Below, piece after piece: positions 33,269 through 55,755 of a stretch of DNA of 64,000 nt. Made by a program: the position numbers and the translations under genes. The DNA comes from an uncultured Holophagales bacterium (GTDB lineage Bacteria; Acidobacteriota; Thermoanaerobaculia; Multivoradales; UBA5704): the NCBI GenBank assembly GCA_963842525.1, contig CAWJGT010000006.1, forward strand, positions 193,913 to 257,912. The letters are read 5' to 3'. Every line of letters starts with the position of its first letter. Position 1 is the first letter of the stretch. Under the pieces are notes generated by a model. It ran no database searches, had not been told where the DNA came from, and saw only the letters and a list, made by a program, of their open reading frames with translations.

Positions 33269-33269
33269 C

Positions 33270-34013
33270 GGCCAGGCCGGCGAAGGTCCCGGTCCTCGTC
33301 CTCGGCACCTACCACTTCGACAACCCGAACCTCGACTACGTCAAGTCCAACGTGGACGACCACCTCGCCGAGAAGCGCCAGAAGGAGATCCAGCAGGTGG
33401 TCGACCTCCTGGCGAAGCTCAAGCCCACGAAGATCGCCGTGGAGTTTCCAGAAGGAGATGGCCGTCTCCAAAGCCGGTACGAGGCGTACGTCAAGGGAGA
33501 GCACACCTGACCGCCAACGAGACCGAGCAGCTCGGCTTCCGTCTCGCGAAACAGCTCGGCCATGCCAGGATCCATCCCGTGGACCACAAGCTCGACATGG
33601 ACTTCGAAGCCGTCATGAACGCCGCCCAGCAGAGCGGAGACCGCAAGTTCCTGGAGACCGTCCAGAGCGCCATGGTCATGATCCAGGACCTCCAGAAGCG
33701 CCAATCCACCCAGACCGTCCGCGAGAACCTGGCTGAGATCAATGATCCCCAGATGGCGGCCACCGCGCGTGACCTCTACCTGCAGCTCTCCAGGGTGCGC
33801 ACTACTGACAAGTACGTGGGAGCCGACGTGCTGGCCGGCTGGTACCAGCGCAACTTCCGGATCTTCGCCAACCTCGTCCGGGTGATCGAAACCCCCGAGG
33901 ACCGCCTCCTGGTGATCTTCGGCTCAGGCCATCTGGCGACCCTGCGGGAGCTGGTGCGCAGCAGCCCGGATCTGGAATTTGTGGAAGCCGGGGAGTATCT
34001 GGGGACGCGGTAG
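33270..34013 (+). pseudogene. DUF5694-like protein lacking its N-terminus (frameshift at ~33500)
   Basis: VLVLGTYHFDNP, PTKIAVE, NETEQLGFRLA, WYQRNFRIFANL, IFGSGH. Confidence 0.65.
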
Positions 34014-38871: not shown

Positions 38872-38976
38872 CTCCTTCTCCAGTGTACCTCGGCACGGCT
38901 TAAACAAAACGCACCGTTGCGGGTCTCATCGATCAGCCGCAACGAGGAGCACACTTGGCACAAAGCGAGGAGGCAG

Positions 38977-40899
38977 ATGGAGGCAGCGGAACGTCTGGCC
39001 AGGTCATCCCTGGATGACATCGTCGACATTCCCGGACATGTGTGCTTCGTCGAGGACCTCCTCGGCAGGTACGACCTCGACAGCAGCCGGAAAGACACCT
39101 GGACGGCCGCTCTGGGGAGGATCCGCACCCGGCAGACGGACCCGGACCTCTATCTCGCGGTCGTCGGCGAATTTACGAGCGGCAAGAGCTCTCTCGTCAA
39201 TGCGCTGATCCGGCAGGAGCTCCTGCCGACTGATGTCCTGCCGGCAACCACTGCCGCGGCAACGCTGGTGCGGTATGGCGACCAGCCCCGGCTGCGGGTG
39301 GACTATATCGACGGACGGCATGAGGAATTCCTGAATGGGCACGGACAGCCCAGCCAGAGCCTCGGCCCTCTTGTGCACCGGGTCACGGCTATCGAGGAGG
39401 TCGCGAGCACCGTCACCCACGTCACAGTGCACTATCCGGCTCCGGTGCTGCGCCAGGGCCTGGTGGTGGTGGATACGCCAGGCGCCAACGTCGAGAATCC
39501 CCGTCACGTGGAGCTCGCCGGATGGGTCCTCCGAGAGCTTTGCGATGCGGCGATCGTTGCAGTGCCCGCCAGTATCCCGGTCGCGGACACCCTGGCGGAT
39601 TTTCTGCGCGTCCATCTCCAGGACAGCCTGCACCGGTGCGTGTTCCTCGCCACCAAGATCGATTCGATTCCCGAGAGGGATCGCCCGCGGCTTCTGGAGA
39701 TGATAGCGAGCCGGCTCACCTCCAAGCTCGGAATCGAAAAACCCGTGGTGCTGCCGGCGAGCGCCATAGCGGCACTCGGGAAGCCACTGGCTGACGGCAC
39801 GGATTCTCGCACTCTGGGGCCGGCGGGCGAGGCCTATCGGGCGCTGCAGGCCCAATTCATGGAAACCGAGGAGACGATCGCCCGGACGCTCCAGGAACAG
39901 CGGACGCTGATCCTGCTCGAGCGCCTATCGTCCCTCGTCTCCACCGTCCTCGATGGCCTCAAGGCGGAGCTAGAGGCCGTGGAGCAACGCTACCAGGTGG
40001 ACCACGCGGCGCTCGAAGCGAACCGGATTCGCGAGCTCGCACCCTACATCGAACAGAGCAAGGCCCGGCATGGGAAATCGCTCGCGTTGCAACTCGATCC
40101 GCTGGTCATCAACGGGCGGGAGATGGTAGCCGCGTCGCGGAAGAGAATTCTGGAACAACTCAAGATAAGGATCGATAAGGCTGTCAGTCGGATAGGCCTC
40201 GAAAACGTCGTCAGCGAAGCGGCGTGGATGCTGGGTGAGGAGGCACGGGCGCTGCAGGAGAAACTCGGTACAGTTTTTTCAAGGATTCGAGAGGCAGCTC
40301 AGGAGGAGATTGACAGATTCGAGGCCAAGTTTCTGCGATTGCACCCATCTCTCCAGACGCTTGACGGGAGGATCATGCTCGATGGAGTCGAAGGAGGAAA
40401 GAGTCTTCCGAGAGATTTTTCTCCTGTGTTGGCCTTGGCCTTGACGCCCGTGATTGACTATATGCGTGAGGTGAGCTCGAAGATAAATTCCCGTACTTGG
40501 GTGGGCGCGCTCATTGGATGCCTTTTCTGTGGTGTCGGCGCCATTCCGGGAGCCATTATCGGCAACCGGTCCGGCCCCCCGCTCGAAGAGCTTCGGCGGA
40601 CATGCTGGGACAAGTCGCGTTCTGCAATGGATAACAACTTCTCTGCTCTCGGCTCTGCGATCGACCAGCAACTCAGGAAAGCGCAGGACGATGTCCGCCG
40701 GCAGTTGAGTCAGACCATCGATCGCTATTTTGACCAATACGACTCCCTGTTCCAGCGGATGGTCTCTACGGATCAGCAGAGGGCGCGAGAGCTGGATCTC
40801 TTGCGACGCAAAGTGCAGGACGACCTCTCCAGCCTCGAACAGCGCCGCCGGCGAATGCAGCAGGCACGCGCCGGCCTTCAGGGGCTTCACAAGTTGTAA
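38977..40899 (+). CDS. Bacterial dynamin-like GTPase 1
   Basis: RBS GAGGAGG; GEFTSGKSS, PATT, DTPG, TKID; coiled coils; Gly-rich hydrophobic hairpin WVGALIGCLFCGVGAIPGAIIG. Confidence 0.9.
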   Translation: MEAAERLARSSLDDIVDIPGHVCFVEDLLGRYDLDSSRKDTWTAALGRIRTRQTDPDLYLAVVGEFTSGKSSLVNALIRQELLPTDVLPATTAAATLVRYGDQPRLRVDYIDGRHEEFLNGHGQPSQSLGPLVHRVTAIEEVASTVTHVTVHYPAPVLRQGLVVVDTPGANVENPRHVELAGWVLRELCDAAIVAVPASIPVADTLADFLRVHLQDSLHRCVFLATKIDSIPERDRPRLLEMIASRLTSKLGIEKPVVLPASAIAALGKPLADGTDSRTLGPAGEAYRALQAQFMETEETIARTLQEQRTLILLERLSSLVSTVLDGLKAELEAVEQRYQVDHAALEANRIRELAPYIEQSKARHGKSLALQLDPLVINGREMVAASRKRILEQLKIRIDKAVSRIGLENVVSEAAWMLGEEARALQEKLGTVFSRIREAAQEEIDRFEAKFLRLHPSLQTLDGRIMLDGVEGGKSLPRDFSPVLALALTPVIDYMREVSSKINSRTWVGALIGCLFCGVGAIPGAIIGNRSGPPLEELRRTCWDKSRSAMDNNFSALGSAIDQQLRKAQDDVRRQLSQTIDRYFDQYDSLFQRMVSTDQQRARELDLLRRKVQDDLSSLEQRRRRMQQARAGLQGLHKL

Positions 40900-40979
40900 G
40901 GCTTAAACAAAACGCACCCTTGCGTGTCTCATCGATCAGCCGCAAAGAGGAGCCCACTTCGGTACAAAGCGAGGAGGAA

Positions 40980-42922
40980 ATGGAGACAGCGGAGCGTCTG
41001 GCCAGTTCATCCCTGGATGAGATCGTCGACATTCCCGGACATGTGTGCTTCGTCGAGGACCTCCTCGGCAGGTACGTCCTCGACAGCAGCCGGAAAGACA
41101 CCTGGACGGCCGCTCTGGAGAGGATCCGTGACCGTCAGACGGATCCGGACCTCTATCTCGCGGTCGTCGGCGAGTTCTCGAGCGGCAAGAGCTCTCTCGT
41201 CAATGCGCTGATCCGGCAGGAGCTCTGCCGACCGACGTCCTGCCGGCAACCACGGCTGCAGCCACGCTGGTGCGGTATGGCGACCATCCCCGGCTGCGAG
41301 TGGACTACACCGACGGACGGCATGAGGAATTCCTGAATGGGCACGGACGGCCCGGCCAGAGCCTCGGCCCTCTCGTGCAACGGTTCACGGCCGTCGAGGA
41401 GGTCGCGAGCACCGTGTCCCGCGTCACGGTGCACTATCCGGCGCCGGTGCTGCGCCAGGGTCTGGTGGTGGTGGACACGCCGGGCGCCAACGTCGAGAAC
41501 CCCCGTCACGTGGAGGTCGCCGGGTGGGTCCTCCGTGAACAGTGCGATGCGGCGATCGTCGCGGTTCCCGCCAGCTTCCCGGTCGCGGACACCTTGGCGG
41601 AGTTCCTGCGCATCCACTTCCAGGACAGCCTGCACCGGTGTGTGTTCCTGGCCACCAAGATCGACCTGATTTCCGCGGGAGAGCGCCCGCGGCTCCTGGA
41701 GACGATCGCGAGCCGGCTCACTTCCAAGCTCGGGATCGAGCGACCGGTGGTGCTGCCGGCGAGCGCCACGGCGGCGCTTGGGGTGCCGTTGCCGGACGGT
41801 ACGGGCCCCAGCACTCTCGGACCGGCGGGTGAGGCGTACCGGGCGCTTCGGGCCCAGTTCGTGGAGACCGAGGAGACGATCGCCCGGACGCTCCAGGAGC
41901 AGCGGGCCCTGATCCTTCTCGAGCGCCTCTCCTCCCTCGTCTCGACCGTTCTCGACGGCCTCAAGGCGGAGCTAGAGGACGTGGAGCAACGTTATCAGGC
42001 GGACCATGCGGCGCTCGAAGCGAACCGGATCCGCGAGCTCGCACCCTATATCAAGCAGAGCAAGGCCCGGCACGCGAAGTCGCTCGCGTTGCGGCTCGAT
42101 CCGGTGGCCATCCGGGGTCGGTCGATCGTTGCCAACGCGCGCGAGAAGGCCCACAAAAAGATCAAGAAGACGCTGGACGAGGCAACCGACAAGGCAGCGC
42201 TTCAGGCAGCCTCTACCCAGGGCGTGACGGAGCTGCTGGACGATCAGACGGACAAGATACAAAGCAAGCTGGGGAAGGTTCTTCGGGACATGGGGGAAAT
42301 CGCCCTGAACGAAATCCAGTCCTTCGAGGCTTCTTTCCTCCAGATCTATCAGTCACTGGCCACCTTGGGAGGAAGAATCGCCCTGGACGGTCAGACCGCG
42401 TCTCGTAAGCTGTCCGAGATTCCCAAAGAGCTTCTCGTTTCCGATGCGCTCGATGTGATCCGCAAAAGCGACGAGAAGGTGGACGGCATCATGAAAGGGT
42501 TTGCCTGGACCGGTGCTGCGATCGGGACCGCCATCTCGCCGATCATCGGGACCGCGATCGGCTTCCTCGCCGGAGCCTTCCTCGGTGCATTTTTCGAGCC
42601 CTCCATCGACGAGCTGCGCAATCGTTGTTGGCAGGCGTTGCGCCCCGACGTCGAGCAGAGATTCGAGAGGCTCGAGTCGGCCGTCGAGGAGAGGGTTGCC
42701 ACGGCGGAAGGGGCGATCCGGCAGCAGTTGAACGCTGTCATCGATCGCTATTTCGAGCAGTACGACGCCCTGGTCCGGCGGATGATTGCCGCGGACCAGA
42801 AGAAAGCGCGAGAGCTGGGCCGCCTGCGACGGAAGGTGCGCGATGACCTGGCCAGCCTCGAGCAGCGCAGCGAGCAGTTGCATCTCGCGCGCACCGGTCT
42901 CCAGAGACTTCACAAGCTGTAA
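40980..42922 (+). CDS. Bacterial dynamin-like GTPase 2 (1-bp frameshift at ~41226)
   Basis: GEFSSGKSS, DTPG, TKID; GAGCTCTG versus GAGCTCCTG in the paralog; glycine-zipper TM segment. Confidence 0.85.
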
Positions 42923-42932
42923 GGAGGACACC

Positions 42933-44699
42933 ATGGAGCATCTCACGTACGAGCCGCAGGCTACCCTCGCGGCTCCGCCGCCGGACGCGGAGCCGGCGCA
43001 TCTCGTGGAAGCGGTCCGCAAGCTCGTCGAAGATACGGGCTCGGAGGTCCTGCGCCGGGAATGGCGGCGCCTGGGTGCCCGCTCCCGCGAGCCACACTTC
43101 TCTGTCGCCGTGGTCGGTGAGTTCTCGCGCGGCAAGAGCACCCTCGTCAACCGGCTGCTCGGTGTGGACCTTCTGCCGGTCGGCCCTGTCCCCACCACCG
43201 CCCTGCTGACGCGCGTCGCATACGCCCCCGAAGCCTCGCTCGTCGGGATCCTGCCCGATGGCCGCCGCGAGGATCTCGGAACCGGCCCGGAGGCCTGGGA
43301 GAAGGCCGCCGCGGAGTCTCGTTGGGCGGCGCTGGAGGTCGCCGTCCCCAACCAGTGGCTCCGCGACAGCGGGCTCCAGCTCCTCGATACCCCCGGTGCC
43401 GGCGATCTCGGCGAGGAGCGGATGGAAGAGGTGATCGATGCAATTTCGGTTTGTGAGGCAACTGTGGTCGTCATCAGCGCGACGATGGCGCTCAGCCTCA
43501 CGGAACGATCTTTCCTGGAACAGCATATCCTCGCGCGCAGCGTGCCGCGCGTCCTTGCCGTGCTGACGCGCCTCGACGAGGTCCCGCCAGGCGAGCGGAC
43601 CCTGGTGATCAATCACGTCCGGGACCGGCTTGCCACCATTCATCCGGACATCGCCTTTGCCGTGTCCCATGCAGAGCCCGTGCTGCCGCCGGACAGCGGC
43701 GTCGAGATCGCCGGCCCGGCGGCGATTGCGGACAAGCTCCTGTCCTGGGCTGCCGGTCCGGAACGCCAGGACCGTGCGCGGCGGCAGCTCAACTCCAACC
43801 TCGCCCGCGTCCTCGCACTGGTCGAAGTGGATTTGGCGGCCCGCAGGGCGGCGGCCGGCCTTGCCGTGGAGGAGCGGCGTCGCAAGGCCGAAGCGGAACG
43901 GCAGGAGCTCGACCGGATGCGTCTCGACTGGGAAGACCTCCGCCTGGGGCTGCGGGCACGGAACGAGGCCCTCCTGGGTTGGGTGGAGGAGCAACTCGCC
44001 GCGGCGGAGCGCTCTGTTTCCGGGAGGTTGGGCCATGAGCTTCAACAAGCGCCAGACGCGCGGCTCTGGTGCCGTCAAGAGCTGCCCTTCCGGCTTCGGC
44101 AGGAGCTCGGAGCCGTGGCACGAGCCGTGGGAGAGTCGCTCCAGCACCAGATGACAGCCGATATGGGATGGCTGCGCCAGGAGGTGAAAGCGCGATTCGA
44201 GAGACGGCTCGACGCGGTCTGCGTCGAGCCGCTGCTCGGGTTTACGGAGGAGGTGGATCCCGAAACCGGGGATGCGCGTGACCTCGGTTCCCTGCGGCTG
44301 ATGACGCGCGTGGGAGCCGGTGTGGCCGGCATCCTGGCGTATGCCCTCTACGGCCCGCTCGGCATTGCGGCGGGCGTCGGCGCCGGCCTCGTCGGTGAAT
44401 ACCTGATCAATCGCCTTGATGAGACTCAGCGAGAGGCGCTGGTCCGCGTGCTCTCGATGGCGATCGACAAGGCATTCAAGCGCGGGCGGGACCTTGCGGT
44501 TGCGCGATTGAGGTCCGCCTACACGTCGATCCTTGCGGACGCGGTCCGCCAAGAGGAGATCTGGTACGAGGCCCGCCGGGAGGCGCTCGGGCGCAGCATG
44601 CCCTCCGAGGCCTCGGAGCCTGAGCACATCGAAGCGAGCTTTGCCGAGTTGCGCCGCTTCCAGAGCCTGCTGGCCAATGAACAGGAGGACCAACGATGA
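42933..44699 (+). CDS. Bacterial dynamin-like GTPase 3
   Basis: RBS AAGGAGG; GEFSRGKST, PTT, DTPG, TRLD; hydrophobic VGAGVAGILAYALYGPLGIAAGVGAGLVG. Confidence 0.9.
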   Translation: MEHLTYEPQATLAAPPPDAEPAHLVEAVRKLVEDTGSEVLRREWRRLGARSREPHFSVAVVGEFSRGKSTLVNRLLGVDLLPVGPVPTTALLTRVAYAPEASLVGILPDGRREDLGTGPEAWEKAAAESRWAALEVAVPNQWLRDSGLQLLDTPGAGDLGEERMEEVIDAISVCEATVVVISATMALSLTERSFLEQHILARSVPRVLAVLTRLDEVPPGERTLVINHVRDRLATIHPDIAFAVSHAEPVLPPDSGVEIAGPAAIADKLLSWAAGPERQDRARRQLNSNLARVLALVEVDLAARRAAAGLAVEERRRKAEAERQELDRMRLDWEDLRLGLRARNEALLGWVEEQLAAAERSVSGRLGHELQQAPDARLWCRQELPFRLRQELGAVARAVGESLQHQMTADMGWLRQEVKARFERRLDAVCVEPLLGFTEEVDPETGDARDLGSLRLMTRVGAGVAGILAYALYGPLGIAAGVGAGLVGEYLINRLDETQREALVRVLSMAIDKAFKRGRDLAVARLRSAYTSILADAVRQEEIWYEARREALGRSMPSEASEPEHIEASFAELRRFQSLLANEQEDQR

Positions 44700-46780
44700 C
44701 CGAGCCCCAGACCAGCGAGATCGAAACCCTTAGCGGGTTCGAGATCTTTCAGCGCAACCTCCAGTCCCTCGCCCGCGCGACCTCGCGGGTGAGCAGCGTT
44801 TATGACCAGCTTGGCATGGAGAGCCGCGCCCAGGCGCTCGCCGTTCTCAAGAAACGGCTCGAATCGGATGGCTTCAAAGTCATGGTTCTGGGAGAGTTCA
44901 AGCGCGGCAAGAGTACATTCATCAACGCGCTGCTGGGCGAGGAGGTGCTCCCCGCCTCAGTCGTTCCCTGCACGGCCGTGATCAATGAGATCAAGTGGGG
45001 CGAAGAGAAGAGAGCCGTCCTCCATTTCCGCCACCCTCAGCCCGCGGTGCCCGGCGTCAAGCTGCCCCGCGAGGTCGCCGCTCATATACGGCGGGGGAAC
45101 GGCGGGCCGGTCCCGCCTCTCGAGGTGCCGGTGGCGAGCCTGGATACGTTCGTGGCCATTCCTGATCCGGGCAGAGAGCAGGCGGATTCGATTGCGGAGT
45201 CGCCGTACGCGCGGGTCGAGGTCTCCTGGCCGCTGGAGCTCTGCCGGCAAGGCATCGAGATCATCGATTCGCCCGGTCTGAACGAGAACGTCACACGGGC
45301 CCGCGTTGCCAAGGATTATGTCGCCAACGTCGATGCGATCCTGTTCGTGATGTCCTGTGACGCGCTCGGGGCCGAATCGGAGCTGCGGGTGATCGATCAG
45401 GAGCTGCGTGGCGTGGGCCACGAATACCTTTTCTTCATCTGCAACCGTTTCGACCAGATCCGGCCGGCGGACCGGCCGCGGCTCGTCGAGTACGCGAAGA
45501 AAAAGTTGGGGGGACGCACGGCGCTGCAGGATGGCATCTTCTTCCTTTCTGCGCTCCAGGGATTGGACGCGCGCCGGCGGGACGACGACGCCCTGCTCGA
45601 AAGCTCCGGCCTGGCAGGGCTCGAAAGAGAGCTGACCCGTTTCCTTACCGAGGACCGTGCCAAGGTGAAGCTCCTGCAGCCGGCCCGGGAACTGAGCTTC
45701 GCTCTGAGTGAAGCGCGCGACAAGATCCTCCCGGCCCAGCGGGCCGCTCTCGACGTGAGCCTCGCCACCCTGGAAGCCCGAGTCGAAGAGCTTTCCCCGC
45801 GCCTCGCAGATGCGGAGCGCTCCAAGCGGCAGATCGTCGCCAACATCAACCATCACCGGCAGTCGTTGCAATCCGAGGTCCGTCTCGAAGCCGAGCGCTT
45901 CCTGCGCGACATTGCCGACTCGCTCGAGACCTGGGTGGATGAGTTGGATCTGGAGAGCACGGTCAGTCTCTTCAAGCTGAAGCACGAAGAGCAGATCGAG
46001 GCCATGGCCAAGGAGATCTGCACCAAGGTCGGCGTCAAGGTCGAAGAGGAGGCGGTGGAGTGGAGCCAGCAGACCCTGCAACCCCTGGTGGAGAAGAGGT
46101 TGGAGGCGATGGCGGAAGACGCCAGTGTGCGGGTGAGCGACTTCTGCTCCAGGATCGACGAGATCCGCACAGCGTTTTCAAAAGTGGAGCTGCGGGAGAA
46201 CGAGGAGCTGAAGGATGCCTCGGGTGGCCAGCGGCTGATAGCTGCCGTCGGCGGACTCCTTCTCGGAGACGTTTTCAGCATGGCGCACGGCGCCCGGTTC
46301 GGCTTCAAGGGGCTCGCGTCGAGCATCCTGGCCCAGGCCGCCACCTTCGGTCTCCTCTACGGCGTCCTGGGCATTGCGAACCCGTTCGTTCTCATCCCGG
46401 CTCTGCTTGGCGCCGGCGCGGCGACGGCCTGGCTCCGAACCGGTGCAATCACCGGGAAGGCAAAGAAAGAGATCGCGCGCTCGCTCACCGAGCAGTTCCG
46501 GAGCGAGCTGGGATCGACTGCCCAGAAGATCGCCGATGAGGTCCACGAGGGCACGCAGGAGTTTGTGAGCACTGCCGAAGAAGGGCTGGATCGCGAGATC
46601 AAGAGCCTCCGCGAACAGATGGATTCCGTGCTCAGCGACAAGAAGGCGGGGGAGGTGCAGGTGCAGGCAAAGAAGCGGCTCCTGGCCGATCTGGATGGCG
46701 AGCTCCGGGACGTCGATGGTGTGATCACTGAGCTGATTTTTGCTGTCGCCGGAAGGCCGAGAACAGCCTGCGCGATGTGA
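44696..46780 (+). CDS. Bacterial dynamin-like GTPase 4
   Basis: ATGA overlap; GEFKRGKST, PCT, DSPG, NRFD, LSA; hydrophobic paddle region. Confidence 0.92.
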   Translation: MTEPQTSEIETLSGFEIFQRNLQSLARATSRVSSVYDQLGMESRAQALAVLKKRLESDGFKVMVLGEFKRGKSTFINALLGEEVLPASVVPCTAVINEIKWGEEKRAVLHFRHPQPAVPGVKLPREVAAHIRRGNGGPVPPLEVPVASLDTFVAIPDPGREQADSIAESPYARVEVSWPLELCRQGIEIIDSPGLNENVTRARVAKDYVANVDAILFVMSCDALGAESELRVIDQELRGVGHEYLFFICNRFDQIRPADRPRLVEYAKKKLGGRTALQDGIFFLSALQGLDARRRDDDALLESSGLAGLERELTRFLTEDRAKVKLLQPARELSFALSEARDKILPAQRAALDVSLATLEARVEELSPRLADAERSKRQIVANINHHRQSLQSEVRLEAERFLRDIADSLETWVDELDLESTVSLFKLKHEEQIEAMAKEICTKVGVKVEEEAVEWSQQTLQPLVEKRLEAMAEDASVRVSDFCSRIDEIRTAFSKVELRENEELKDASGGQRLIAAVGGLLLGDVFSMAHGARFGFKGLASSILAQAATFGLLYGVLGIANPFVLIPALLGAGAATAWLRTGAITGKAKKEIARSLTEQFRSELGSTAQKIADEVHEGTQEFVSTAEEGLDREIKSLREQMDSVLSDKKAGEVQVQAKKRLLADLDGELRDVDGVITELIFAVAGRPRTACAM

Positions 46781-46804
46781 GCTGCCGTCGACAGGAGAGA
46801 TCTT

Positions 46805-49450
46805 ATGACCGGGACGCGATCAGGCAGCTCCGTACAGAATGAGAGCCTGGGCAGCTTCGAGAGGAATCAGCGGGCGCTGGTCAGCCTCGCCTCGCGTACC
46901 GCCACCGTCGTTGGCCGACTCGGCATGGAGGACCGGGCCAGAGCATTGACCCAACTGGCCGCCAGAATCGGGTCCGAGCAGTCCCGGATTCTCGTGATCG
47001 GCGAGTTCAAGCGGGGCAAGAGCACGCTCGTCAATGCCTTGCTGGGAGAAGAGGTGCTGCCCTCCTCGGTAGTCCCCTGTACGGCGCTCATCAGCGAGAT
47101 CAAATGGGGAAAGTGGAAGCGCTTGTTCCTGCACTTCCGTCACCCCTTGCCGTCACCCCTGCCGGAAGGGCTTTCTCCCGACCTGATGGTCCATCTCCGG
47201 AATGGCGGCGGCTACCCGGCTCCGCTCGAGATCCCCGTCGACCGGCTGGCAGACTATTTGGTGATTCGCGATCCCTGGAAAGATCCGGCAGACGCGGCTC
47301 CCGACGCCCTGTACTCGCACGTCGAGGTGTTCTGGCCCGCTGAGCTGCTGAGGCACGGGATCGAGATCGTCGACTCTCCGGGTCTCAATGCACAGCGCGA
47401 CCCCATTGCCCGCGAATACATCGCGAGAGCGGACGCCATCCTCTTTGTGCTCGGGTGCAATGGGCTGGCCTCGCAATCGGAGCTGCGATTCATCGACAAA
47501 GATCTGGACGAGACCGAGCGCGAGAATCTCCTCTTCGTCTGCAACCGCTTCGACGAAATCCGGGAGAGCGACCGTCCGATCGTCATGACCTACGGCAGGG
47601 AGAGACTTGTCAGCAGGACTGGGCTGGGCGAGGCCGGAGTCGTCTTCCTCTCGGCCCGAGAGGCGCTGAGCGCCCGTTCGGGGGAAGGCGGCACGCTCCT
47701 CGAGAAATCGGGCCTGCTTGCGCTCGAGAGCGCGCTCGCTGTCTCTTTGACCTCGGGCCGTCACCGTCTGAAGCTGCTTCAGCCGGCCCGCGAGCTCATT
47801 GACGCGAGCGAAGAGGCTCGCGGCGAGATGCGTGTACGAAGTTCCTCTCTCGAGCAGGATCTAGCCCGGCTGGAAGCCAAGGTCGCGCAGGCCACCGACG
47901 AGTTGGACATCGCCGATCGCGCATGCGGCCGGATTCTGGCTCGCATCGATGAAGGCCGCCGCAGACTGCGGTGGGACGCGATTCATCCTGCAGCCAGTGA
48001 GTTCCTGTCCGAGCTTGCGGAGCGTCTGTGCCACTGGATGGAGAATGTGGCGCTCCAGAGGCGATCCCCTTCGGCATTTCCCGGGTTTGCCGCGCAGGTG
48101 GAGGACGCAGCCAAGGAGGTCTGCCGTGACGTCGGCGTGCGGCTCGGAAAGGAGATCGCGAAGTGGAGGCTTGCAGGTTTGGAGCCGCTCGTGGCCGCCT
48201 GGTTCGAGACGATGGTACAGGAAGTGAGCCCGCACTCGACCAGGTTTTTCTCCAGGATCGAGCGTATCCGCGATGGTTTCCTGGATTCGGGAGGAGCGGG
48301 TGCGGAGCACTCGCAAGGTATGACCCGTGGCGAAGAAATCGGCGCCGAGTTTCTGGCCCGTGTCTTTGCCTACAGCGTCCTGACGAGGATGCTGGAGGGC
48401 TCGCATACGATCCTCCTTTTGCCGATCTTCCTTGGCCAGATGTCGCGAATCTTCCCGTTTATCAACGGCTTCTGGCTGTGGCGGCTCAAGGGGCACCTCT
48501 CTCGCGTCTTCGTGGGCTGCTTCCAGGCCGAGCTCGCTACATTGGCGAATCTCATTGCGGAAGAGATCCATACACGGACCCGCGAGATCAGCCGCACGGC
48601 GGAAGACCTCCTGTGGCGGGAGCTCCAAGCGGCCCGCGACCAGTTGCACGCCGCGGCACTCGACTTGCGGGCGCGCCAAGAGCAGGCTGCGGCCCAGAGG
48701 GGTCTGTTCTCGGAGATCGAGTCGGAGATCCAGGATCTCCAGCTTGCAGTCCATCGCGTCATCGTCGAGGTGGCCGGAGACCGGCCTGGTCCAAAGATGC
48801 TGGACCGGTCTGCGGAGCCGCCTTCGGGCGGAGGGGCGCAGCGCATCCTTTTTCTCGCCGCCGACCCATTCGGTGAGCTGCGCCTCGCTGTGGAGCTCCG
48901 CAACATCCGGGAGCAACTCGCGCGGACCGCGCCGCCGGACATGCGCAGTGACGTTCGCATCGAGCTGGCCGTCCGGATGGAGGACTTGACGCGCGCTCTC
49001 AATGAGCACTCTCCTGACATCGTGCACTTCGCCGGACACGGAGAAGAGGACGGGACGATTTATCTCTTGAATGGAGACGGCCAGCCCCATCCCATTGCAC
49101 CGTGTGTCCTCGCAGAGCTGTTTGACTTGGTCTCCAATCGGATCGAGTGCATCGTGCTCAACTGTTGCCACTCACAGAAGCTGGCGCGCGCCATCCGCAA
49201 GAGAATTCGCTATGTGATCGGCATGCGGCGTGACATCGAAGACAAAGCGGCGATCGCTTTCTCGGTCGGCTTCTATCAGGCTCTGGGAGCAGGACGCTCC
49301 GTCGAGTCGGCCTTTCGCTTCGGATGCGTCCAAACTGCAGGGGTGGACCTGCGCGAAGGCCGGAATCCGGCCCTCTGGAAAGAAGGGTACCTCGTTACCG
49401 CAAGATCCGCCGCGCAACGGCGGAGGCGCGACAGCACAGTGCAATCCTGA
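46805..49450 (+). CDS. Dynamin-like GTPase fused to a C-terminal CHAT (caspase-like) protease domain
   Basis: GEFKRGKST, PCT, DSPG, NRFD; C-terminal RILFLAADP...LRLAVE...IVHFAGHG...IVLNCCHS...VIGM...FYQALGAG. Confidence 0.88.
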   Translation: MTGTRSGSSVQNESLGSFERNQRALVSLASRTATVVGRLGMEDRARALTQLAARIGSEQSRILVIGEFKRGKSTLVNALLGEEVLPSSVVPCTALISEIKWGKWKRLFLHFRHPLPSPLPEGLSPDLMVHLRNGGGYPAPLEIPVDRLADYLVIRDPWKDPADAAPDALYSHVEVFWPAELLRHGIEIVDSPGLNAQRDPIAREYIARADAILFVLGCNGLASQSELRFIDKDLDETERENLLFVCNRFDEIRESDRPIVMTYGRERLVSRTGLGEAGVVFLSAREALSARSGEGGTLLEKSGLLALESALAVSLTSGRHRLKLLQPARELIDASEEARGEMRVRSSSLEQDLARLEAKVAQATDELDIADRACGRILARIDEGRRRLRWDAIHPAASEFLSELAERLCHWMENVALQRRSPSAFPGFAAQVEDAAKEVCRDVGVRLGKEIAKWRLAGLEPLVAAWFETMVQEVSPHSTRFFSRIERIRDGFLDSGGAGAEHSQGMTRGEEIGAEFLARVFAYSVLTRMLEGSHTILLLPIFLGQMSRIFPFINGFWLWRLKGHLSRVFVGCFQAELATLANLIAEEIHTRTREISRTAEDLLWRELQAARDQLHAAALDLRARQEQAAAQRGLFSEIESEIQDLQLAVHRVIVEVAGDRPGPKMLDRSAEPPSGGGAQRILFLAADPFGELRLAVELRNIREQLARTAPPDMRSDVRIELAVRMEDLTRALNEHSPDIVHFAGHGEEDGTIYLLNGDGQPHPIAPCVLAELFDLVSNRIECIVLNCCHSQKLARAIRKRIRYVIGMRRDIEDKAAIAFSVGFYQALGAGRSVESAFRFGCVQTAGVDLREGRNPALWKEGYLVTARSAAQRRRRDSTVQS

Positions 49451-49465
49451 GGCTTGGGTACCGGA

Positions 49466-50920
49466 TCACCCCGCCACAGCCCGCGTTTCGTCTTCGGGCA
49501 ACAGATGCTCGATCGAATTGGCGTAGTAGCGCAGGACCAGCAGCTCTTCGGGGCGGACCTGATAGAGGCCGTCCTTCTCTTCGACGAGGTGGCGGAGGGT
49601 GAGCATCCGCAGGCCGGCTTCGAGGGCATAGTCCTGGTCCTGGCGTGGGATGTAGACGTGGACGCCGGCGGCTGCGAGTTCGGCCATGCGGCGATGGGCG
49701 TGGGCTTTCAAATCGAGCTCGGAGAGCGGCTCGGCGGCGCGCTCGACGAAGATCGAGGCGACCAGCGGCACCGGCAGGACCGGGATCACCCGTCCCACTT
49801 CGGCCATCAGATCGGCGCCGAGCCGTTCGAGGTGGACCGAGCGTTCCTCCTTCTCCAGCCGCCGGAAGTCGAGACCCCGCTCGGTCGTCCAGCGCCGCAT
49901 CGAGATCGGCGAGCCGAAGTTGACACAGGCATAGCCGAAGCGGTGCCAGCGGCTCTGGAGCATCTGCTTGACGTTGCGCAGGGCGAAGCGGAGGGTCGTG
50001 GTTGCGGCGTGGAGCGCATCGGGCTTGTGGGCCTCCGGCTGCATGTCGAGCAGGAGCGTCCGGTCCTCCAGCACCCGGTCGTAGTTGATCCCCACCGGGA
50101 TGAAGACGAGATCGCGCTCCCCCTGCGGATCGAAGCCGCGCAGCATGTAGTCGAGGAGGCCCAGCCTGGGTTTGCGCAGCCGGCCGTCCCGCGACAGGCC
50201 GCCTTCGGGGTAGACCGCCTGCGTCACGCCCCCGGCGGTCGCCATGTGGATGTAGCGCTCGAGCACCCGCCGGTAGAGCGGGTCGCCCGAGCTCCGCCGC
50301 ACGAAGTAGGCCCCGGTCGAGCGGATCAGCGTCTGGAGCGGCCAGATGCGCGCCCACTCGCCCACGGCGTAGGAGAGGGCCGTCTGGCTCGCCGCCAGGT
50401 AGGCCACCAGGACGTAGTCCATGTTGCTCCGGTGGTTCATGAGGAACACGACCGTCGAGGTGGGCGCCACGGCCGCGAGGCCTGTCTCGTCCGAGTAGCC
50501 GAGACGCACCCGATAGAGAAGACGGGCAACTTTGCGTGACAGCCAATAGCCGACGCGGAAGTAGAAGTATGCGTTGAAGGCCGGGACGATCTCGCGGGCG
50601 TAACGCTCCACGCGGGCCATGACCACGTCCCGCGGCATGCCCTGCTCGCGCGCGAAGGCGTCCACCGCCTGGACCACCTTGGGGTCGTACTGCAGCCGAT
50701 CGACGAGCACCTGGCGCTTGGTGCGGTGGAAGGGCGGGATTTCGAGCTTGAGGCGGGTGTTCAGCTCGTCGATGACGCGGTTGACCCGCCGCCGCAGGAA
50801 CCAGCGGACGCTGGGGACCAGCAGCCGGTCGAGCACCGCCCAGGCAGAGAGCAGGGCGAGCACGACGGCGAGCCAGACGGGAAGTGCGACGGTGCCGGTC
50901 ATGGAGAACCCTCGCGCCAT
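49466..50920 (-). CDS. Glycerol-3-phosphate / 1-acyl-G3P acyltransferase (PlsB-like)
   Basis: NHRSNMD (HxxxxD), GAYFVRR, YPEGGLSRDG. Confidence 0.88.
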   Translation of the reverse strand: MARGFSMTGTVALPVWLAVVLALLSAWAVLDRLLVPSVRWFLRRRVNRVIDELNTRLKLEIPPFHRTKRQVLVDRLQYDPKVVQAVDAFAREQGMPRDVVMARVERYAREIVPAFNAYFYFRVGYWLSRKVARLLYRVRLGYSDETGLAAVAPTSTVVFLMNHRSNMDYVLVAYLAASQTALSYAVGEWARIWPLQTLIRSTGAYFVRRSSGDPLYRRVLERYIHMATAGGVTQAVYPEGGLSRDGRLRKPRLGLLDYMLRGFDPQGERDLVFIPVGINYDRVLEDRTLLLDMQPEAHKPDALHAATTTLRFALRNVKQMLQSRWHRFGYACVNFGSPISMRRWTTERGLDFRRLEKEERSVHLERLGADLMAEVGRVIPVLPVPLVASIFVERAAEPLSELDLKAHAHRRMAELAAAGVHVYIPRQDQDYALEAGLRMLTLRHLVEEKDGLYQVRPEELLVLRYYANSIEHLLPEDETRAVAG

Positions 50921-50997
50921 GATATCCGGCCCCTGCGTCACGAGAAAGCGCCCTGCGGCAACTTATTAGTAGGGGCGAGGAAAGTAGGACCGAAGCC

Positions 50998-52305
50998 GTG
51001 CCAAGGATACACCCGAAGTCCGACGTCGCGCTCGAAGCGTTGCACAAATCACTGGACAAAGCTGCGCCGCTTTTGCCCGCTTCCGAGGCGGGCCATCGGA
51101 TCCTGGCCTGGCGGGAGCCCGAGCCCGACTATGGGCTGGTGATCGACAAGGTCCTGCGTACGCTGCGGCCGAAGATCTCCGCCGTCGAGCAGGAGCGTGG
51201 CGAGGCACCCGGCCTGCTGGCCGAGCTGTTGCGGCACCCGCCGGAGCGCCGCGAGGTGCTGGTCCGCAACAGCCGGCGCTTCGGCAGCCTCAGCCTCTGC
51301 GGTCTGCTCCTCCAAGCGAGCCGCCAGGAAGGGATGCGGGATCCTCTGAAAGGTGAGCAGCTTGCCAAGCTGGCTCTCCTGCTCACCGATCGGCTGGAGG
51401 CCCACAGCCATGATCCGCGTTTGGTGGAGGACCTCCGAGCCCGGTGTTGGGCCTTGATCGCCAACGCGCGTCGGATCGCTTCCGACTTCTACGGCGCCGA
51501 GCAGGCGTTTCTCGAAGCGGAAGCTCATCTGCGCCGCGGTACGCGGGATCTCCTGGAACGAGTCTCAGCTCATGGTCCTCAAGGCATGCCTGCGGCGGGA
51601 CCAAAGCTGGTTTCCGGAGGCGGTCCGGCTGCTGCGGCGTGCCGTTTCGATCCGCAGGCTGCGGGGGAACGACAAGGAACCGTCGAGGCGCTCGTACCTG
51701 GGCGATGACTTGCGAGGACAACGGCGAGCCGGAAGAGGGGATCCGGCTCCTGCACAAGGCGCGTGCGCTCTGCGAGCCTGACACCGATCTGGAAATGGAT
51801 TTGTCCGTTATAACCTGATCTGTTGCCTGGTGGACGCGGGCCGGACATTCGAAGCAAAGGCGTTATTCGACCCCTACCGGCAGCTCTACAAGCAGATCCA
51901 GAATCCAATTTCTCAGCTCCGGATCTCCTGGTTGGAGGCGAATATCGCGCTAGATTTGGGCCGGATCCAGGAGGCGGAGGATCTGCTGCGCGGAATCCGG
52001 GACGGCTTCGTAGAGCGAGGGAACGTCTTTGAAGCAGCCCTCGTCACACTCGATTTGTCCCTGCTGTGCGCCGACCGCGAGGCCGGCTGGCCGAGGCGGA
52101 GCGCCTCGCCCGGCAGGTGCAGCCCGTGTTCCAGGCTTACCGTATTCCGCGCGAGGCGCTCGCCTGTCTGATCCTGATCAGTAATTCTTCGCGAAAACGG
52201 CGGTCTCCTGCTTCGGCCGGTCGCAGACGACGCAGCGGTCGAAGCCGCCGTCGTCCACCGGATCGAGCGGCAGACAGCGGATCGTCACCTTCAACGACTC
52301 CTTGA
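50998..52305 (+). CDS. TPR-like protein, third paralog (multiple frameshifts; end uncertain)
   Basis: RRFGSLSLCGLL, DLRARCWALIANARR, RISWLEANIA, AALVTLDLSLL, IPREALACL. Confidence 0.6.
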
Positions 52306-53719
52306 CCTCGGCTTCGCACTTGGCGTCGCCGCACCAGGGCGAGACGGCGAAGCCGCCGTGGATCTCCGGCTTCTCGGCGTTCTGCGGCGTGAAGAACGCC
52401 ACGAATTCCTCCTTGGTGCCGATCGCCCGCGTGTGCTCCTCGCGGTAGGCCTTGGCGCGCTCGAAGAGCCCGCGCTGCATCTCGTCGAGGATCTCCAGGA
52501 CGCGTGCCGCGATCTCGCCGCGCGGGACGTCGGACTTCTCCGACGCAGGCCGGTCGCGGCGAGCGAGGAAGACGGTCCCCCGCTCGACGTCGCGCGGCCC
52601 GATCTCGAGGCGGATCGGGACGCCCTTCTTGATCCACTCCCACTGCTTCTGGCCGCCGCGGGCCTCGCGGAGGTCGATCTCGACGCCGAGCGGCCGGTCG
52701 CCATAGCGCTGCGCCCGCAGCTCGGCTGCGACTTTTTCGACGTAGTCGAGCACCTGGGCGCGGGTGTCGTCCGCGCGCAGGATCGGCAGGATGACGACGT
52801 GCGAAGGGGCGAGGCGCGGCGGCAGGACCAGGCCGTCGTCGTCGCTGTGGGTCATGATCAGGCCGCCGATCAGCCGGGTCGACATGCCCCAGGACGTCGT
52901 CCAGGCGAATTCCTCGGTCCCTTCGCGGGACTGGAACTTGATCTCGCTGGCGCGGGCGAAGTTCTGGCCGAGGAAGTGCGAGGTGCCGGCCTGCAGGGCC
53001 TTGCGGTCCTGCATCATGGCCTCGATGGCAAAGGTATCGACGGCGCCCGGGAAGCGCTCGCTCGGCGTCTTCCGGCCGCGCAGGACCGGCATGGCCATGT
53101 AGTCCTCGGCGAACTGCGCGTAGACGTCGAGCATGCGCAGCGTCTCCTCGCGCGCCTCCTGCTCGGTCTCGTGCACGGTGTGCCCCTCCTGCCAGAGGAA
53201 CTCGGTGGTGCGCAGGAACATGCGGGTGCGCAGCTCCCAGCGCACGACGTTCGCCCACTGGTTGATGAGCAGCGGCAGGTCGCGGTAGCTCTGGACCCAC
53301 CTGGCGAACATGGCGCCGATGATCGTCTCGGAGGTGGGCCGGACGATCAGCGGCTCTTCGAGCTCGGCCGCGGGATCGGGAACCAGCCCGCCTTTCGGCC
53401 CCTGGATCAGCCGGTGGTGGGTGACCACCGCGCACTCCTTGGCGAACCCCTCGACGTGCTCGGCCTCTTTTTCGAGGTAGGACAGGGGGATGAACAGCGG
53501 GAAGTAGGCGTTCTTGTGCCCGGTCGCCTTGAACATGGCGTCGAGGTCGCGCTGGATGTTCTCCCAGAGCGCGTAGCCCCACGGCTTGATGACCATGCAG
53601 CCGCGGACCGGCGAGTTCTCGGCCAGGTCGGCGGCCTTGACGACCTGCTGGTACCACTCCGCATAGTCTTCGTTGCGCGTCGGGGTGATGGCGGTGCTGG
53701 GGGTATCTTTCTTGGCCAC
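52178..53719 (-). CDS. proS: Proline--tRNA ligase (archaeal/eukaryotic type)
   Basis: VRGCMVIKPWG, RPTSET, QWANVVRWE, FLWQEGHT, QAGTSHFLGQNF, C-terminal AKNY; GTG start. Confidence 0.96.
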   Translation of the reverse strand: MAKKDTPSTAITPTRNEDYAEWYQQVVKAADLAENSPVRGCMVIKPWGYALWENIQRDLDAMFKATGHKNAYFPLFIPLSYLEKEAEHVEGFAKECAVVTHHRLIQGPKGGLVPDPAAELEEPLIVRPTSETIIGAMFARWVQSYRDLPLLINQWANVVRWELRTRMFLRTTEFLWQEGHTVHETEQEAREETLRMLDVYAQFAEDYMAMPVLRGRKTPSERFPGAVDTFAIEAMMQDRKALQAGTSHFLGQNFARASEIKFQSREGTEEFAWTTSWGMSTRLIGGLIMTHSDDDGLVLPPRLAPSHVVILPILRADDTRAQVLDYVEKVAAELRAQRYGDRPLGVEIDLREARGGQKQWEWIKKGVPIRLEIGPRDVERGTVFLARRDRPASEKSDVPRGEIAARVLEILDEMQRGLFERAKAYREEHTRAIGTKEEFVAFFTPQNAEKPEIHGGFAVSPWCGDAKCEAEVKESLKVTIRCLPLDPVDDGGFDRCVVCDRPKQETAVFAKNY

Positions 53720-53756
53720 GTGTGTGTCCTTTTCAGTGGATCTGCGCGGGCTGGGT

Positions 53757-53891
53757 CCCTCACCCCCGGCCCCTCTCCCATCCGCCCTCCCAAACCGCCG
53801 GGAGAGGGGAGAAAAGATCTGGTTTTTAGCTCTCCCCCCTCTCCCGGGGGAAGGGAGTGCGGATGGGAGAGGGGGGCCGGGGGGGTGAGGG
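53757..53891. repeat. CCCTCACCCCC-family palindromic element
   Basis: Arms closely match those of 24537-24677. Confidence 0.85.
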
Positions 53892-53912
53892 CTCCCGGCA
53901 GAGCCGCCTATC

Positions 53913-55755
53913 CTATCCTGGAGCCAAGCGGAATTCGAGCTGCGCGGCGGTCTCGGCGACGCGGCGCTCATAGTCCTCTCCCTGCACCCGCTCGCGCAGG
54001 CGGTCGCTGACCGGCAGCGCCATGGGCATCGGCTTCCAGGCGAAGGGCTGGCCTGTGCGGGCGTCGAGCACCCGTCCCTCGGCCACGCCGTGGCTGGCCT
54101 CGGCCAGGGGGACGCCGGCGAAGGTCTTCTCCAGCGTGCGCAGCAGGGCTTCGTCGTCGGGAGAGAGGAAACGCAGGTTCTTCCGGCCCTGGCGGGCGGT
54201 GTGGTAGTGGGCCGGCACGAAGAGCAGCCCGTCGAGCTGCAGGCGGTCGCAGACCAGGACGAGGAGCGCGATGACGTCGGCCAGCATTCCCAACCCTGGA
54301 TGTTGCTGGCCGGGCAGGTGGGGACGCTCGGCGGTGAACTGCGCCCGCGGGTTCTGGAGGAGCAGCCATTCGATCCGCAGGAGGGCCAGGCCGGGGACCT
54401 CCTGCCGGTCGATGCGCAGCCGGGTCTCCAGGATCAGCTCGCGCCTGCTCGGCCCGGCGAAGATCCGCACCGTGTCTCCGGTCGGATTGCCGATCTCGGT
54501 CTCGACGACCAGGTCGGCGAAACCGCGGTTGCGCAGCCGGCCGAGGAAGCCGGTCCGCTCCATCGCCAGCTCCAGGCCTGCCGGCGAGTAGTAGCCGAGC
54601 AGGCGGTGCGACCGGCGCAGCCCGCCGAGCATGCCGAGGTCCTCCTCGGTGAGGCCCCAATCGTCGCTGGGAGCGTCGCCGGTCAGCTCGTGCGGGGAGA
54701 AGCTCGCGGGCGATGCGCCGGTAGCGCAGCAGCGTGGACGTTTCCTGATCGGGGGGCTCCAGGGCCTTGCCGCGGTTGAGGAGAGAGGAGAAGAACCGCG
54801 CGCTGTAGCGCCAGGCCTCGGGTCCATAGCCGCCGCCGAGCAGCACGACCAGCGGCGGCTTGCGGGCGCCGCCCCGGACACAGGAGAGGACGAAGCGGTC
54901 GCGCTCCAGCATCCCCTCGGCCGAGACCTTCCAGTTGCCGATGCGGTCGTCGTGGGCCGGGTCGCAGCCGGCGATGTAGAAGACCAGCTCCGGCCGGAAG
55001 CTCGCGACCACAGGTGGAAGATGGATGCGCAGGGCCTCCAGGTACTCCTCGTCGCCGACCTCCCCCGCAAGCTCCATGACGGTCGCAGCCGCGGCGTTGC
55101 GTGCCCGCTCGTCGGGCGTCGAGAGGTTGTGGATCGAGAACGTATGGACCGTCGGGGCCTCGGCGAAGATCGAGCGCGTGCCGTCGCCGTCGTGCAGGTC
55201 GAGGTCGACGACCAGGACCGGACCCGCGAAGCCGCGGGCGCGCAGCTCGGCGATGGCCACGGCGGCGTCGTGGAAGACGCAGAAGCGCTCTCCTTTGTAG
55301 GCGAAGGCGTGGTGCAGCCCGCCGCCGAGGTTGACGGCGATCCCCTTGGACTGGAGCGCGAGGGCGGTGGCGAGGAGGGTGCCGCCCGTCATGGTGCGCT
55401 GCGCCTCCAGGACCCGCTCGGACTGCTCGTCCGAGAGAGCGAAGCCGACGATCGGCGTGAGGGCGCCCGGCCGGTGGAGGGCCTCCAGATACTCGTCGGT
55501 ATGCACCCGCCGGAGGTGGCGGAAGGAGGCCGGGAGCGCCTCATGGACCGCGCGCGCGGGAAGAAGGCCGGTGGCGTCGAGGAAGCTCAGGATTCGTTCG
55601 CCGCGCAGCGGGTCGTTGACGCCGCCGGGCAGGTCGAGCTGGTAGCGCCGGCTGTAGACGAAGTCCGCGGGGTGGCGGCCGGCCAGGCCGAGGAGCCGGC
55701 GCCGGCCGCGGCGAAGCGTGCGGGCGAGAGGGGCGATCAGGGCGAGCGGGCTCAT
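53913..55755 (-). CDS. Histone deacetylase family protein with a C-terminal extension (frameshift at ~54700)
   Basis: GGGLHHA, FCVFHD, DLDLHDGDGT, GCDP, LGGGY. Confidence 0.85.

Follow-up and report, generated by a model that had tools for sequence, protein, structure and literature searches.

We analyzed a 64,000-nucleotide stretch of DNA (here called the window; G+C content 67.5%) from an uncultured Holophagales bacterium (GenBank assembly GCA_963842525.1, contig CAWJGT010000006.1, positions 193,913 to 257,912 of the forward strand), in which five dynamin genes follow one another in tandem on the + strand, flanked by a divergent PanE/ApbA gene on one side and a convergent acyltransferase gene on the other. 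The last of the five tandem dynamin genes, dyn5-CHAT (P0001; 46805..49450, + strand), encodes in a single open frame an 881-amino-acid (aa) fusion protein whose C-terminus is a compact CHAT protease module with its dyad residues intact. The reading that we prefer, tentatively and with slightly less than even confidence, is that dyn5-CHAT is an active caspase-like protease mounted on a dynamin of the bacterial dynamin-like protein (BDLP) type, that it is activated by GTP- and membrane-driven dynamin assembly, and that it serves as a defence or membrane-stress module.

The CHAT module (clan CD, caspase-like) covers residues 679-865, about 185 residues, and is encoded at 48839..49399 on the + strand. 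A preliminary description of this DNA had placed a CHAT domain at 48839..49400 in dynamin 5, and this assignment was borne out by Pfam, PADLOC, phmmer and fold matches. The Pfam CHAT family (PF12770) matched residues 697-838 of dyn5-CHAT with an E value of 1.8e-8 (34.6 bits versus a cut-off of 24). Since only positions 109-260 of the 289 positions in the PF12770 profile were covered, the module represents the compact form of the domain. Two PADLOC models also matched the protein, 'chat' with an E value of 8.5e-9 and 'SAVED_CHAT' with an E value of 2.9e-6, the latter match being confined to the CHAT part (residues 678-838, profile positions 287-451). An NCBIfam scan of dyn5-CHAT gave no model at cut-off. 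Using phmmer against the PDB sequences, we found that the sole significant match of dyn5-CHAT was 8tl0_A, the SAVED-CHAT protein (E 3.3e-12). Aligned end to end with other dynamin-CHAT fusions, dyn5-CHAT kept one frame throughout.

The preliminary description had further proposed that a caspase-like His/Cys dyad is kept in the motifs HFAGHG (49025-49042) and LNCC (49157-49168). Both motifs lie exactly there, in the frame of the open reading frame (ORF) 46805-49450, and the dyad is indeed kept. In the phmmer alignment, HFIGHG and LNACC of 8tl0_A stand opposite HFAGHG and LNCC of dyn5-CHAT. The dyad of 8tl0_A falls at sequence indices H355 and C402, with the same spacing of 47 as H375 and C422 of SAVED-CHAT and a constant offset of 20. 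Because the aligned His and Cys of 8tl0 share this spacing with the validated H375/C422, the second His of HFAGHG (His745, codon 49037..49039, + strand) and the second Cys of LNCC (Cys788, codon 49166..49168, + strand), which align with H375 and C422, respectively, are the predicted catalytic pair. According to the SAVED-CHAT preprint, the H375A/C422A double mutant is inactive, and Cys422 and His375 are about 4 Å apart in the active filament (bioRxiv 10.1101/2023.06.23.546230).

The AlphaFold2 (AF2) model of the CHAT domain (residues 679-881, 60-row alignment) had a mean predicted local distance difference test score (pLDDT) of 91 and a predicted template modelling score (pTM) of 0.87. In both the domain model and the full-length model, His745 immediately follows strand 739-744 and Cys788 immediately follows strand 782-787, in keeping with the clan CD arrangement, in which the catalytic His (of an H-G motif) and Cys each end one of two adjacent parallel strands. 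The top Foldseek match of the CHAT model was again 8tl0 (E 5e-15, template modelling score 0.77-0.79, root mean square deviation (rmsd) 2.4 Å), with C11 proteases, caspase-11, MALT1, legumain, Csx29 and caspase-3 ranked below it. VIA-align superposed the CHAT model on 8tl0 over 181 residues (Z 24.0, rmsd 2.1 Å) and gave Z values of 12.3-14 for gingipain, C11 proteases, the DdvA CHAT domain, caspases 6 and 7, legumain, MALT1 and a metacaspase. As modelled, the CHAT module has the caspase-hemoglobinase fold, that of the SAVED-CHAT protease domain. A complex prediction for two copies of the module scored 0.01 versus a mark of 0.42 and was taken neither for nor against binding.

The family of the compact module is very large: in an exhaustive HMMER search, 13,728 representative proteins matched at E<=1e-3, 9,310 at E<=1e-10 and 1,432 at E<=1e-30, which puts the match far beyond chance. 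Across the family the module occurs at either end of the protein. Its fusion partners, taken from precomputed Pfam accessions with names checked on 14 proteins, include TIR with trypsin, SIR2, PNP_UDP and NUDIX; Hsp70 with TIR; response-regulator/sigma-54 ATPase; NACHT, nSTAND2, iSTAND and EAD7; and LRR-Roc-COR, WD40, TPR, pentapeptide repeats and kinases.

The dyad was invariant in 97/97 homologues selected by words. In the best 144 representatives, which together hold 175 module copies, His745 was kept in 161 copies and Cys788 in 155, and 114 of the 115 single-copy proteins kept both residues. All 12 dynamin-associated CHAT proteins (12/12) kept the dyad. The exceptions follow a pattern in proteins with two or three modules in tandem (n=29): 22 of these mix intact and degenerate copies, 4 have only intact copies and 3 have none intact. 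Since 22/29 tandem proteins join an intact copy with a degenerate one, this sequence pattern suggests that the compact CHAT module probably functions in pairs, as a dimer. If so, a protein with one module would depend on a further copy in trans, and a partner domain that oligomerises can provide it.

The source genome (9.95 Mb, 34 contigs, 96% complete) gave 63 Pfam CHAT matches, many of them lying in open frames 950-1500 aa long. The genome also has a second compact module, in a 265-aa frame (C9:830513-831061), that is 44% identical to the dyn5 module.

The partner domain in dyn5-CHAT is a dynamin. The GTPase domain covers residues 62-247 (46988..47545, + strand; Pfam Dynamin_N, E 1.3e-24), and its motifs are intact (P-loop GEFKRGKS, PCT, DSPG and NRFD). 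The full-length AF2 model (pLDDT 85.9) shows, in order, N-terminal helices, the GTPase domain, very long stalk helices, a poorly predicted paddle at about residues 494-556, a last helix at 577-657, a disordered linker at 659-675 and the CHAT module. Among PDB folds, the best match of the dynamin part was the Nostoc BDLP (2j69, E 4e-23), and IniA (6j72), SynDLP (7zw6), the Campylobacter Cj-DLP1/2 pair (5oxf) and mitofusins were also matched. Residues 1-657 of dyn5 are a BDLP-type dynamin with the features of the BDLP/mitofusin class, namely a dynamin-type GTPase domain with its G1-G4 motifs, a helical neck and trunk, and a paddle, here degenerate. The flexible Pro/Gly-rich linker that joins the last stalk helix to CHAT (residues 659-678; 48779..48838, + strand) has a pLDDT below 50 at residues 659-675, and this disorder would leave the protease free to meet a neighbouring module.

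The paddle, or membrane-hairpin region, of dyn5 (residues 494-556; 48284..48472, + strand) is degenerate according to the alignments, with a pLDDT of 51-58. About 26 residues are gone relative to the other fusions, including a G..GARFGFKG stretch that is conserved across the entire dyn4/5 clade with or without a CHAT partner, and one hydrophobic segment remains (residues 535-553). A hidden frameshift in this region was excluded, as P0007, P0009, P0010, P0012 and dyn4 (P0002) all align with it in one frame.

The partly deleted paddle bears on the alternative that CHAT in dyn5 is a non-catalytic adaptor or a decaying remnant. Other signs pointing the same way are that dyn5 is the most divergent of the fusions, that a frameshifted dyn2 lies nearby, and that degenerate module copies are present in 25/29 tandem proteins. 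However, the frame is open over 881 codons, the domain is modelled at the high pLDDT given above, and P0001 has not only His745 and Cys788 but also the other family-invariant residues His741, E697, D813, F819 and Y824. We therefore regard an adaptor or remnant as very improbable.

The association of dynamin with CHAT recurs outside the window. At 90% clustering, ten C-terminal fusions were found (P0001, P0007, P0009, P0010, P0012, P0152 and P0246-P0249), making this a rare type. All ten have the P-loop, DxPG, His and Cys motifs, and they form one clade in which P0001 is an outlier (37-41% identity) while the others are 48-94% identical to one another. Their database names are only 'dynamin family protein' or 'GTPase SAR1 family protein'. 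Two different fusions, P0010 and P0012, are 71% identical and each comes from a 148,897-bp contig, which may mean that a single locus carries two fused genes.

Three metagenome loci show the gene order around other fusions. Locus L034 has dyn1-type, dyn3-type, dyn4-type and dyn-CHAT genes, then a convergent epimerase gene. Locus L035 has SpoIIE (- strand), dyn1-type, dyn4-type and dyn-CHAT genes, followed by an M48 peptidase, an acyltransferase (- strand) and HDAC (- strand). Locus L033, which is cut at its start, has dyn4-type and dyn-CHAT genes followed by a zinc-ribbon protein and an M48 peptidase. A dyn4-type gene stands immediately 5' of the fusion in 4/4 fused loci (the window, L033, L034 and L035), and no neighbours other than dynamins are conserved in all the fused loci.

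Two other arrangements, independent of the clade of C-terminal fusions, were found. In P0072 the CHAT module is N-terminal, and a ~150-residue unstructured stretch leads from it to a dynamin that shares only 23-24% identity with the dyn4/5 type. In the congeneric genome G004, locus L032 has three orthologous dynamins (53-55% identical to dyn1/2, dyn3 and dyn4), then two small ORFs, then a WD40-CHAT gene, its module sharing 52% identity with the P0001 module. Dynamin and CHAT are therefore linked in three separate ways: by C-terminal fusions, by an N-terminal fusion and by an adjacent WD40-CHAT gene. A Nostoc locus (L020) was rejected as a dynamin-CHAT locus, as its CHAT-WD40 gene lies among caspase genes and it has no dynamin.

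The two small ORFs of G004 (contig C46, 6386-6688 and 6713-7045) encode paralogues of 100 and 110 aa that are ~55% identical. They matched no Pfam family, had no transmembrane (TM) segment and had no homologue in the window or any other locus examined. In G004 they are candidate substrates or regulators. The M48 (HtpX-like) metallopeptidase genes 3' of the fusion in L033 (5074-6144) and L035 (8967-10019) are 73% identical to each other, and the window holds no homologue of them.

In the window the fusion closes a compact gene cluster. The first gene, dyn1 (38977..40899, + strand), encodes a bacterial dynamin-like GTPase (Dynamin_N, E 4.7e-24); because the dyn2 start matches, we place the dyn1 start at Met70 of ORF 38770-40899. 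The dyn1 protein shares 54% identity with the dynamin that comes first in the congeneric locus L032 and has a hydrophobic Gly-rich paddle at about residue 511. Its tandem paralogue dyn2 (40980..42922, + strand) is frameshifted and split into ORF pieces 40920-41336, with the Dynamin_N P-loop, and 41270-42922, with the C-terminal part of Dynamin_N. Next comes dyn3 (42933..44699, + strand; Dynamin_N, E 1.7e-18; putative start MEHLTY), a dynamin-like GTPase of a second type that shares 55% and 52% identity with the dynamins in second place in L032 and L034, respectively. The fourth gene, dyn4 (44696..46780, + strand), encodes a full BDLP-type dynamin (Dynamin_N, E 8e-26; helical domain PF21808, E 2e-17) and is the closest paralogue of dyn5 (39% identical). 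The dynamin gene just upstream of the CHAT gene in L032, L033 and L035 is 55-61% identical to dyn4, and dyn4 is likely the partner of dyn5.

The frameshift in dyn2 is a one-base deletion between 41224 and 41225, just past the P-loop, where the alignment with dyn1 has GAGCTCCTG versus GAGCT-CTG. The gene may be a pseudogene or the deletion an assembly error. The public sequencing runs yielded only soil-metagenome DNA contigs as matches (<=0.29 of sampled words) and no RNA run, and among these short, fragmentary read contigs none bridged the deletion site. About 170 bp around the deletion is 95% identical to dyn1, although over the C-terminal 550 residues the two proteins share only 62% identity. 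This local identity suggests gene conversion or a recent partial duplication, and it may also reflect an assembly error.

The preliminary description had seen no obvious target ORF near dyn5, and our survey of the cluster and its flanks agrees with it. The intergenic gaps among the five dynamin genes are 0-80 bp (24 bp between dyn4 and dyn5), leaving no room for a small substrate gene in the operon. Upstream lies the divergent PanE/ApbA gene (37954-38907, - strand), and downstream the convergent acyltransferase gene (49466-50941, - strand) ends 15 bp past the CHAT stop codon. The Pfam scan of the window found no substrate-like gene in the flanks. The ORFs from 37954 to 55755 are PanE, the five dynamins, the acyltransferase, ProRS, HDAC, and 159-aa and 236-aa ORFs without a family. 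None of these is a gasdermin gene, a negative that covers this interval and not the whole genome, for which no gasdermin profile search was made.

An operon with no other substrate gene raises the alternative, already suggested in the preliminary description, that CHAT processes its own polypeptide or cleaves the partner dynamins, for example setting free the protease, or else a Gly-rich membrane hairpin that would go on to damage or seal the membrane. It is also consistent with this alternative that dynamins are the sole conserved neighbours of the fusions and that dyn1 and dyn2 have Gly-zipper-like paddles, which gave weak Pfam matches to Gly-zipper_Omp (E 0.002) and Bacteriocin_IIc (E 6e-4). 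Moreover, auto-proteolytic effector release has been proposed for related EACC1-associated caspase proteins (Kaur et al. 2020, PMC7159879), and EACC1, a proven caspase-released pore former, likewise has a Gly-rich TM segment. On the other hand, both paddle matches are under the Pfam cut-offs, and the Gly-rich paddle motif is equally conserved in dynamins without a CHAT partner and partly deleted in dyn5 of the window. The linker has no conserved motif among the five fusions aligned, which argues weakly against a conserved self-cleavage site, and the CHAT module has no known cleavage specificity. On balance we consider this alternative rather unlikely.

The distribution of the cluster is patchy. 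Among 41 related genomes searched, the full fusion was found only in the source genome and adjacency of dynamin and CHAT genes only in G004. The dynamin cluster is present in 2/6 genomes of the genus, and in the other four the matches came solely from other CHAT proteins or from a single dynamin of a different kind. A scan of genome contigs gave 13 loci, with no fusion among them. Within the DNA examined, 4/26 distinct dynamin-cluster loci have a CHAT module and 22/26 do not. A separate single dynamin of ~600 aa is more widely found and is present in most genomes searched.

The composition and divergence of the cluster also set it apart from its surroundings. The G+C content at third codon positions (GC3) of the dynamin genes (38770-49450) is 0.75-0.81 versus 0.85-0.92 for the flanking genes, a difference that hints at acquisition from elsewhere or at another selection regime. 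The window and L035 share synteny in their SpoIIE, acyltransferase and HDAC flanks. Between the window and L035, the acyltransferase is 76% identical, HDAC 73% and dyn4 59%, while dyn5-CHAT is only 40% identical.

These flanks bring in the alternative that the system performs housekeeping membrane remodelling or quality control rather than immunity, the dynamins repairing or reshaping the cytoplasmic membrane and CHAT trimming membrane- or dynamin-bound proteins. The conserved neighbour in the window and L035 is glycerol-3-phosphate-acyltransferase-like (76% identity, as above), an HtpX-like M48 membrane peptidase gene lies downstream in L033 and L035, and no mobile-element genes adjoin. Nevertheless, we find a housekeeping role rather unlikely, given that the cluster occurs in so few of the genus genomes and the full-length fusion in 1/41 relatives searched, that most genomes searched have the commoner single dynamin, that the other CHAT partners are mostly immune-type effectors and sensors, and that dyn5 diverges much faster than its flanks.

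The closest characterized relative of the module is SAVED-CHAT of Haliangium ochraceum (PDB 8TL0), which has the same compact CHAT fold and dyad positions at 26-29% identity. According to its description, oligomerisation in a cA3-driven filament activates the protease (bioRxiv 10.1101/2023.06.23.546230), and the protease is joined by a flexible hinge to an oligomerising domain, as would be the case in dyn5-CHAT. The partners differ, that of SAVED-CHAT being a cA3-binding SAVED sensor and that of dyn5 a dynamin GTPase; an N-terminal SAVED domain is absent from dyn5-CHAT, in which residues 1-657 are dynamin. The type III CRISPR/CBASS locus of SAVED-CHAT holds a substrate gene, PCaspase, whereas the dyn5 operon has no SAVED, CRISPR or substrate gene.

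The EACC1-caspase systems, as presented by Kaur et al. 2020 (PMC7159879), fuse a constant caspase to ~50 alternative domains. They resemble the CHAT family in combining a constant caspase module with many partners, among them STAND NTPases, peptidases, repeats and Hsp70-like chaperones (PMC7159879; bioRxiv 10.1101/2025.11.14.688446), and they act at the membrane. Unlike them, the dyn5 operon lacks the defining upstream EACC1 gene and any small ORF; directly upstream of the CHAT gene, dyn4 stands in place of an EACC1-type small gene. The source genome gave no match to EACC1 (PF19953) at E<=1e-3, a weak negative since the control genomes were likewise silent.

Neither source names our fusion partner: 'dynamin' has 0 occurrences in the main text of Kaur et al. 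2020 (PMC7159879), and no dynamin appears as a partner in the parts of Evans et al. 2025 searched (bioRxiv 10.1101/2025.11.14.688446). Full-text literature searches uncovered no published account of a bacterial dynamin-CHAT or dynamin-caspase fusion, the papers listed being, by title, on mitofusins, guanylate-binding proteins or IRGs or otherwise unrelated, or mentioning dynamins just in general terms, although the supplementary domain tables of Kaur 2020 and Evans 2025 may list one. The protease module and the dynamin scaffold are each known, and their combination is undescribed.

On the dynamin side, the comparison is with Eleos (LeoA/LeoBC), described as an anti-phage dynamin-like pair (bioRxiv 10.1101/2022.12.12.520048). 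The window shares with Eleos and other bacterial dynamin-like proteins the BDLP architecture, the tandem paralogues and the PADLOC LeoA/LeoBC matches, but has five genes versus two or three. To our knowledge, no known bacterial dynamin-like or Eleos system carries a protease domain. The PADLOC LeoA/LeoBC models matched all five dynamins with E values of 1e-8 to 2e-24. The NCBIfam model NF041922 (LeoA/HP0731) gave 15-23 bits versus a cut-off of 325 for four of the five dynamins and no match for P0004, the C-terminal piece of dyn2, and the NCBIfam DynA model gave 44.6 bits versus a cut-off of 1600.

Two other clan CD proteases are, like dyn5-CHAT as we read it, switchable immune effectors. The TPR-CHAT protein of Craspase (Csx29, type III-E CRISPR) is a weaker fold match (8eey_B, Foldseek E 4e-4) and is activated by RNA-guided Cas7-11, whereas the dyn5 operon has neither TPR nor Cas7-11. 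The type IV Thoeris protease is activated by a TIR-made nucleotide, and the dyn5 operon has no such component. Once activated, this caspase-like protease is described as degrading proteins indiscriminately (10.1101/2024.10.24.620036), so that a dedicated substrate gene is not required. From gasdermin-protease systems our locus differs in that no gasdermin gene adjoins dyn5-CHAT. In mammals, guanylate-binding protein (GBP) coats polymerise on membranes and recruit caspase-4/11, forming a platform for caspase activation. Those are separate eukaryotic proteins, unlike the single bacterial polypeptide here, and the comparison is an analogy only, with no homology beyond the superfamilies.

From these observations we propose how an active, assembly-switched dyn5-CHAT might work. 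The protease would be tethered through its flexible linker to the C-terminal stalk helix of the dynamin, with three or four partner dynamins co-encoded. The dynamins would co-assemble on the membrane in a GTP-dependent manner, dyn4 and dyn5 pairing as other bacterial dynamins do. In solved BDLP structures the C-terminal helix runs back to the neck, next to the GTPase domain, so the CHAT modules would lie close to the contacts between GTPase domains in the polymer. Assembly would bring neighbouring dyn5 CHAT modules together, and induced proximity would switch the protease on, much as in the cA3-driven filaments of SAVED-CHAT. The active protease would then cut in trans at or near the membrane, its targets being the partner dynamins or unlinked cellular proteins. 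The M48 gene in L033 and L035 and the two small ORFs in G004 make unlinked or lineage-specific substrates possible. The whole system would act as a defence or stress module triggered by membrane damage or phage.

Several observations support this proposal: the dyad and fold, the tandem-module pattern, the repeated dynamin-CHAT links, the conflict-type partners, the LeoA/LeoBC matches, the patchy occurrence of the cluster, its low GC3 and the disordered linker. An immune or membrane-stress role in particular is suggested by the conflict-type partner repertoire, the LeoA/LeoBC matches and the patchy distribution with fast divergence. Several points weigh on the other side. The locus is not in a classical defence island and lies among housekeeping-type genes (PanE, acyltransferase, ProRS and HDAC), with flanks syntenic with those of L035. 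The LeoA and DynA scores in NCBIfam fall so far under their cut-offs that the PADLOC matches may reflect general dynamin homology only. CHAT partners are very diverse, so a single fusion could be incidental, and most related dynamin-cluster loci in the DNA examined (the 22/26 given above) have no CHAT. Finally, the dyn2 frameshift, the divergence of dyn5 from all other fusions and its partly deleted paddle suggest that the system may be decaying in the source genome.

A bolder form of the proposal, which we think distinctly improbable, is that dyn5-CHAT is a one-polypeptide counterpart of the GBP-caspase platform. A dynamin polymer triggered by damage or phage would activate the protease, and cleavage of dynamins or envelope proteins would turn membrane repair into killing, giving cell death without a gasdermin or EACC1 gene.

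Other features of the window were also recorded. About 15 kb upstream of the dynamin cluster, a gene at 22387-23781 (+ strand) encodes a TIR and AAA_16 (STAND-like) protein, a typical conflict-system architecture. Two overlapping candidate ORFs at 32921-33736 and 33264-34013 (both + strand) gave a weak match to the kinase Zeta_toxin (E 2e-6) and a match to DUF5694 (E 9e-47). Both are within a ~6.5-kb stretch between SpoIIE and the dynamin cluster that is missing from L035 and may be an insertion. On the other side of the cluster, the acyltransferase has 491 aa in the window versus 846 aa in L035, and the 159-aa ORF upstream of it (51049-51528, - strand) is 35% identical over 140 aa to the longer L035 protein. 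The acyltransferase gene may be split or truncated in the source genome.

The roles of bacterial dynamins and the triggers of their assembly are still largely open, and a built-in protease would make assembly measurable and mutable as cleavage. The fusion implies an activation input, GTP- and membrane-driven polymerisation, that would be new for bacterial caspase-like proteases. If the proposal is true, such polymerisation would join cyclic nucleotides, RNA-guided complexes and STAND sensors as a switch for these proteases, and would offer a prokaryotic parallel to animal innate immunity, where coats of dynamin-superfamily proteins activate caspases. The possible pairing rule for the compact CHAT module could likewise guide work on thousands of uncharacterised CHAT fusion proteins.

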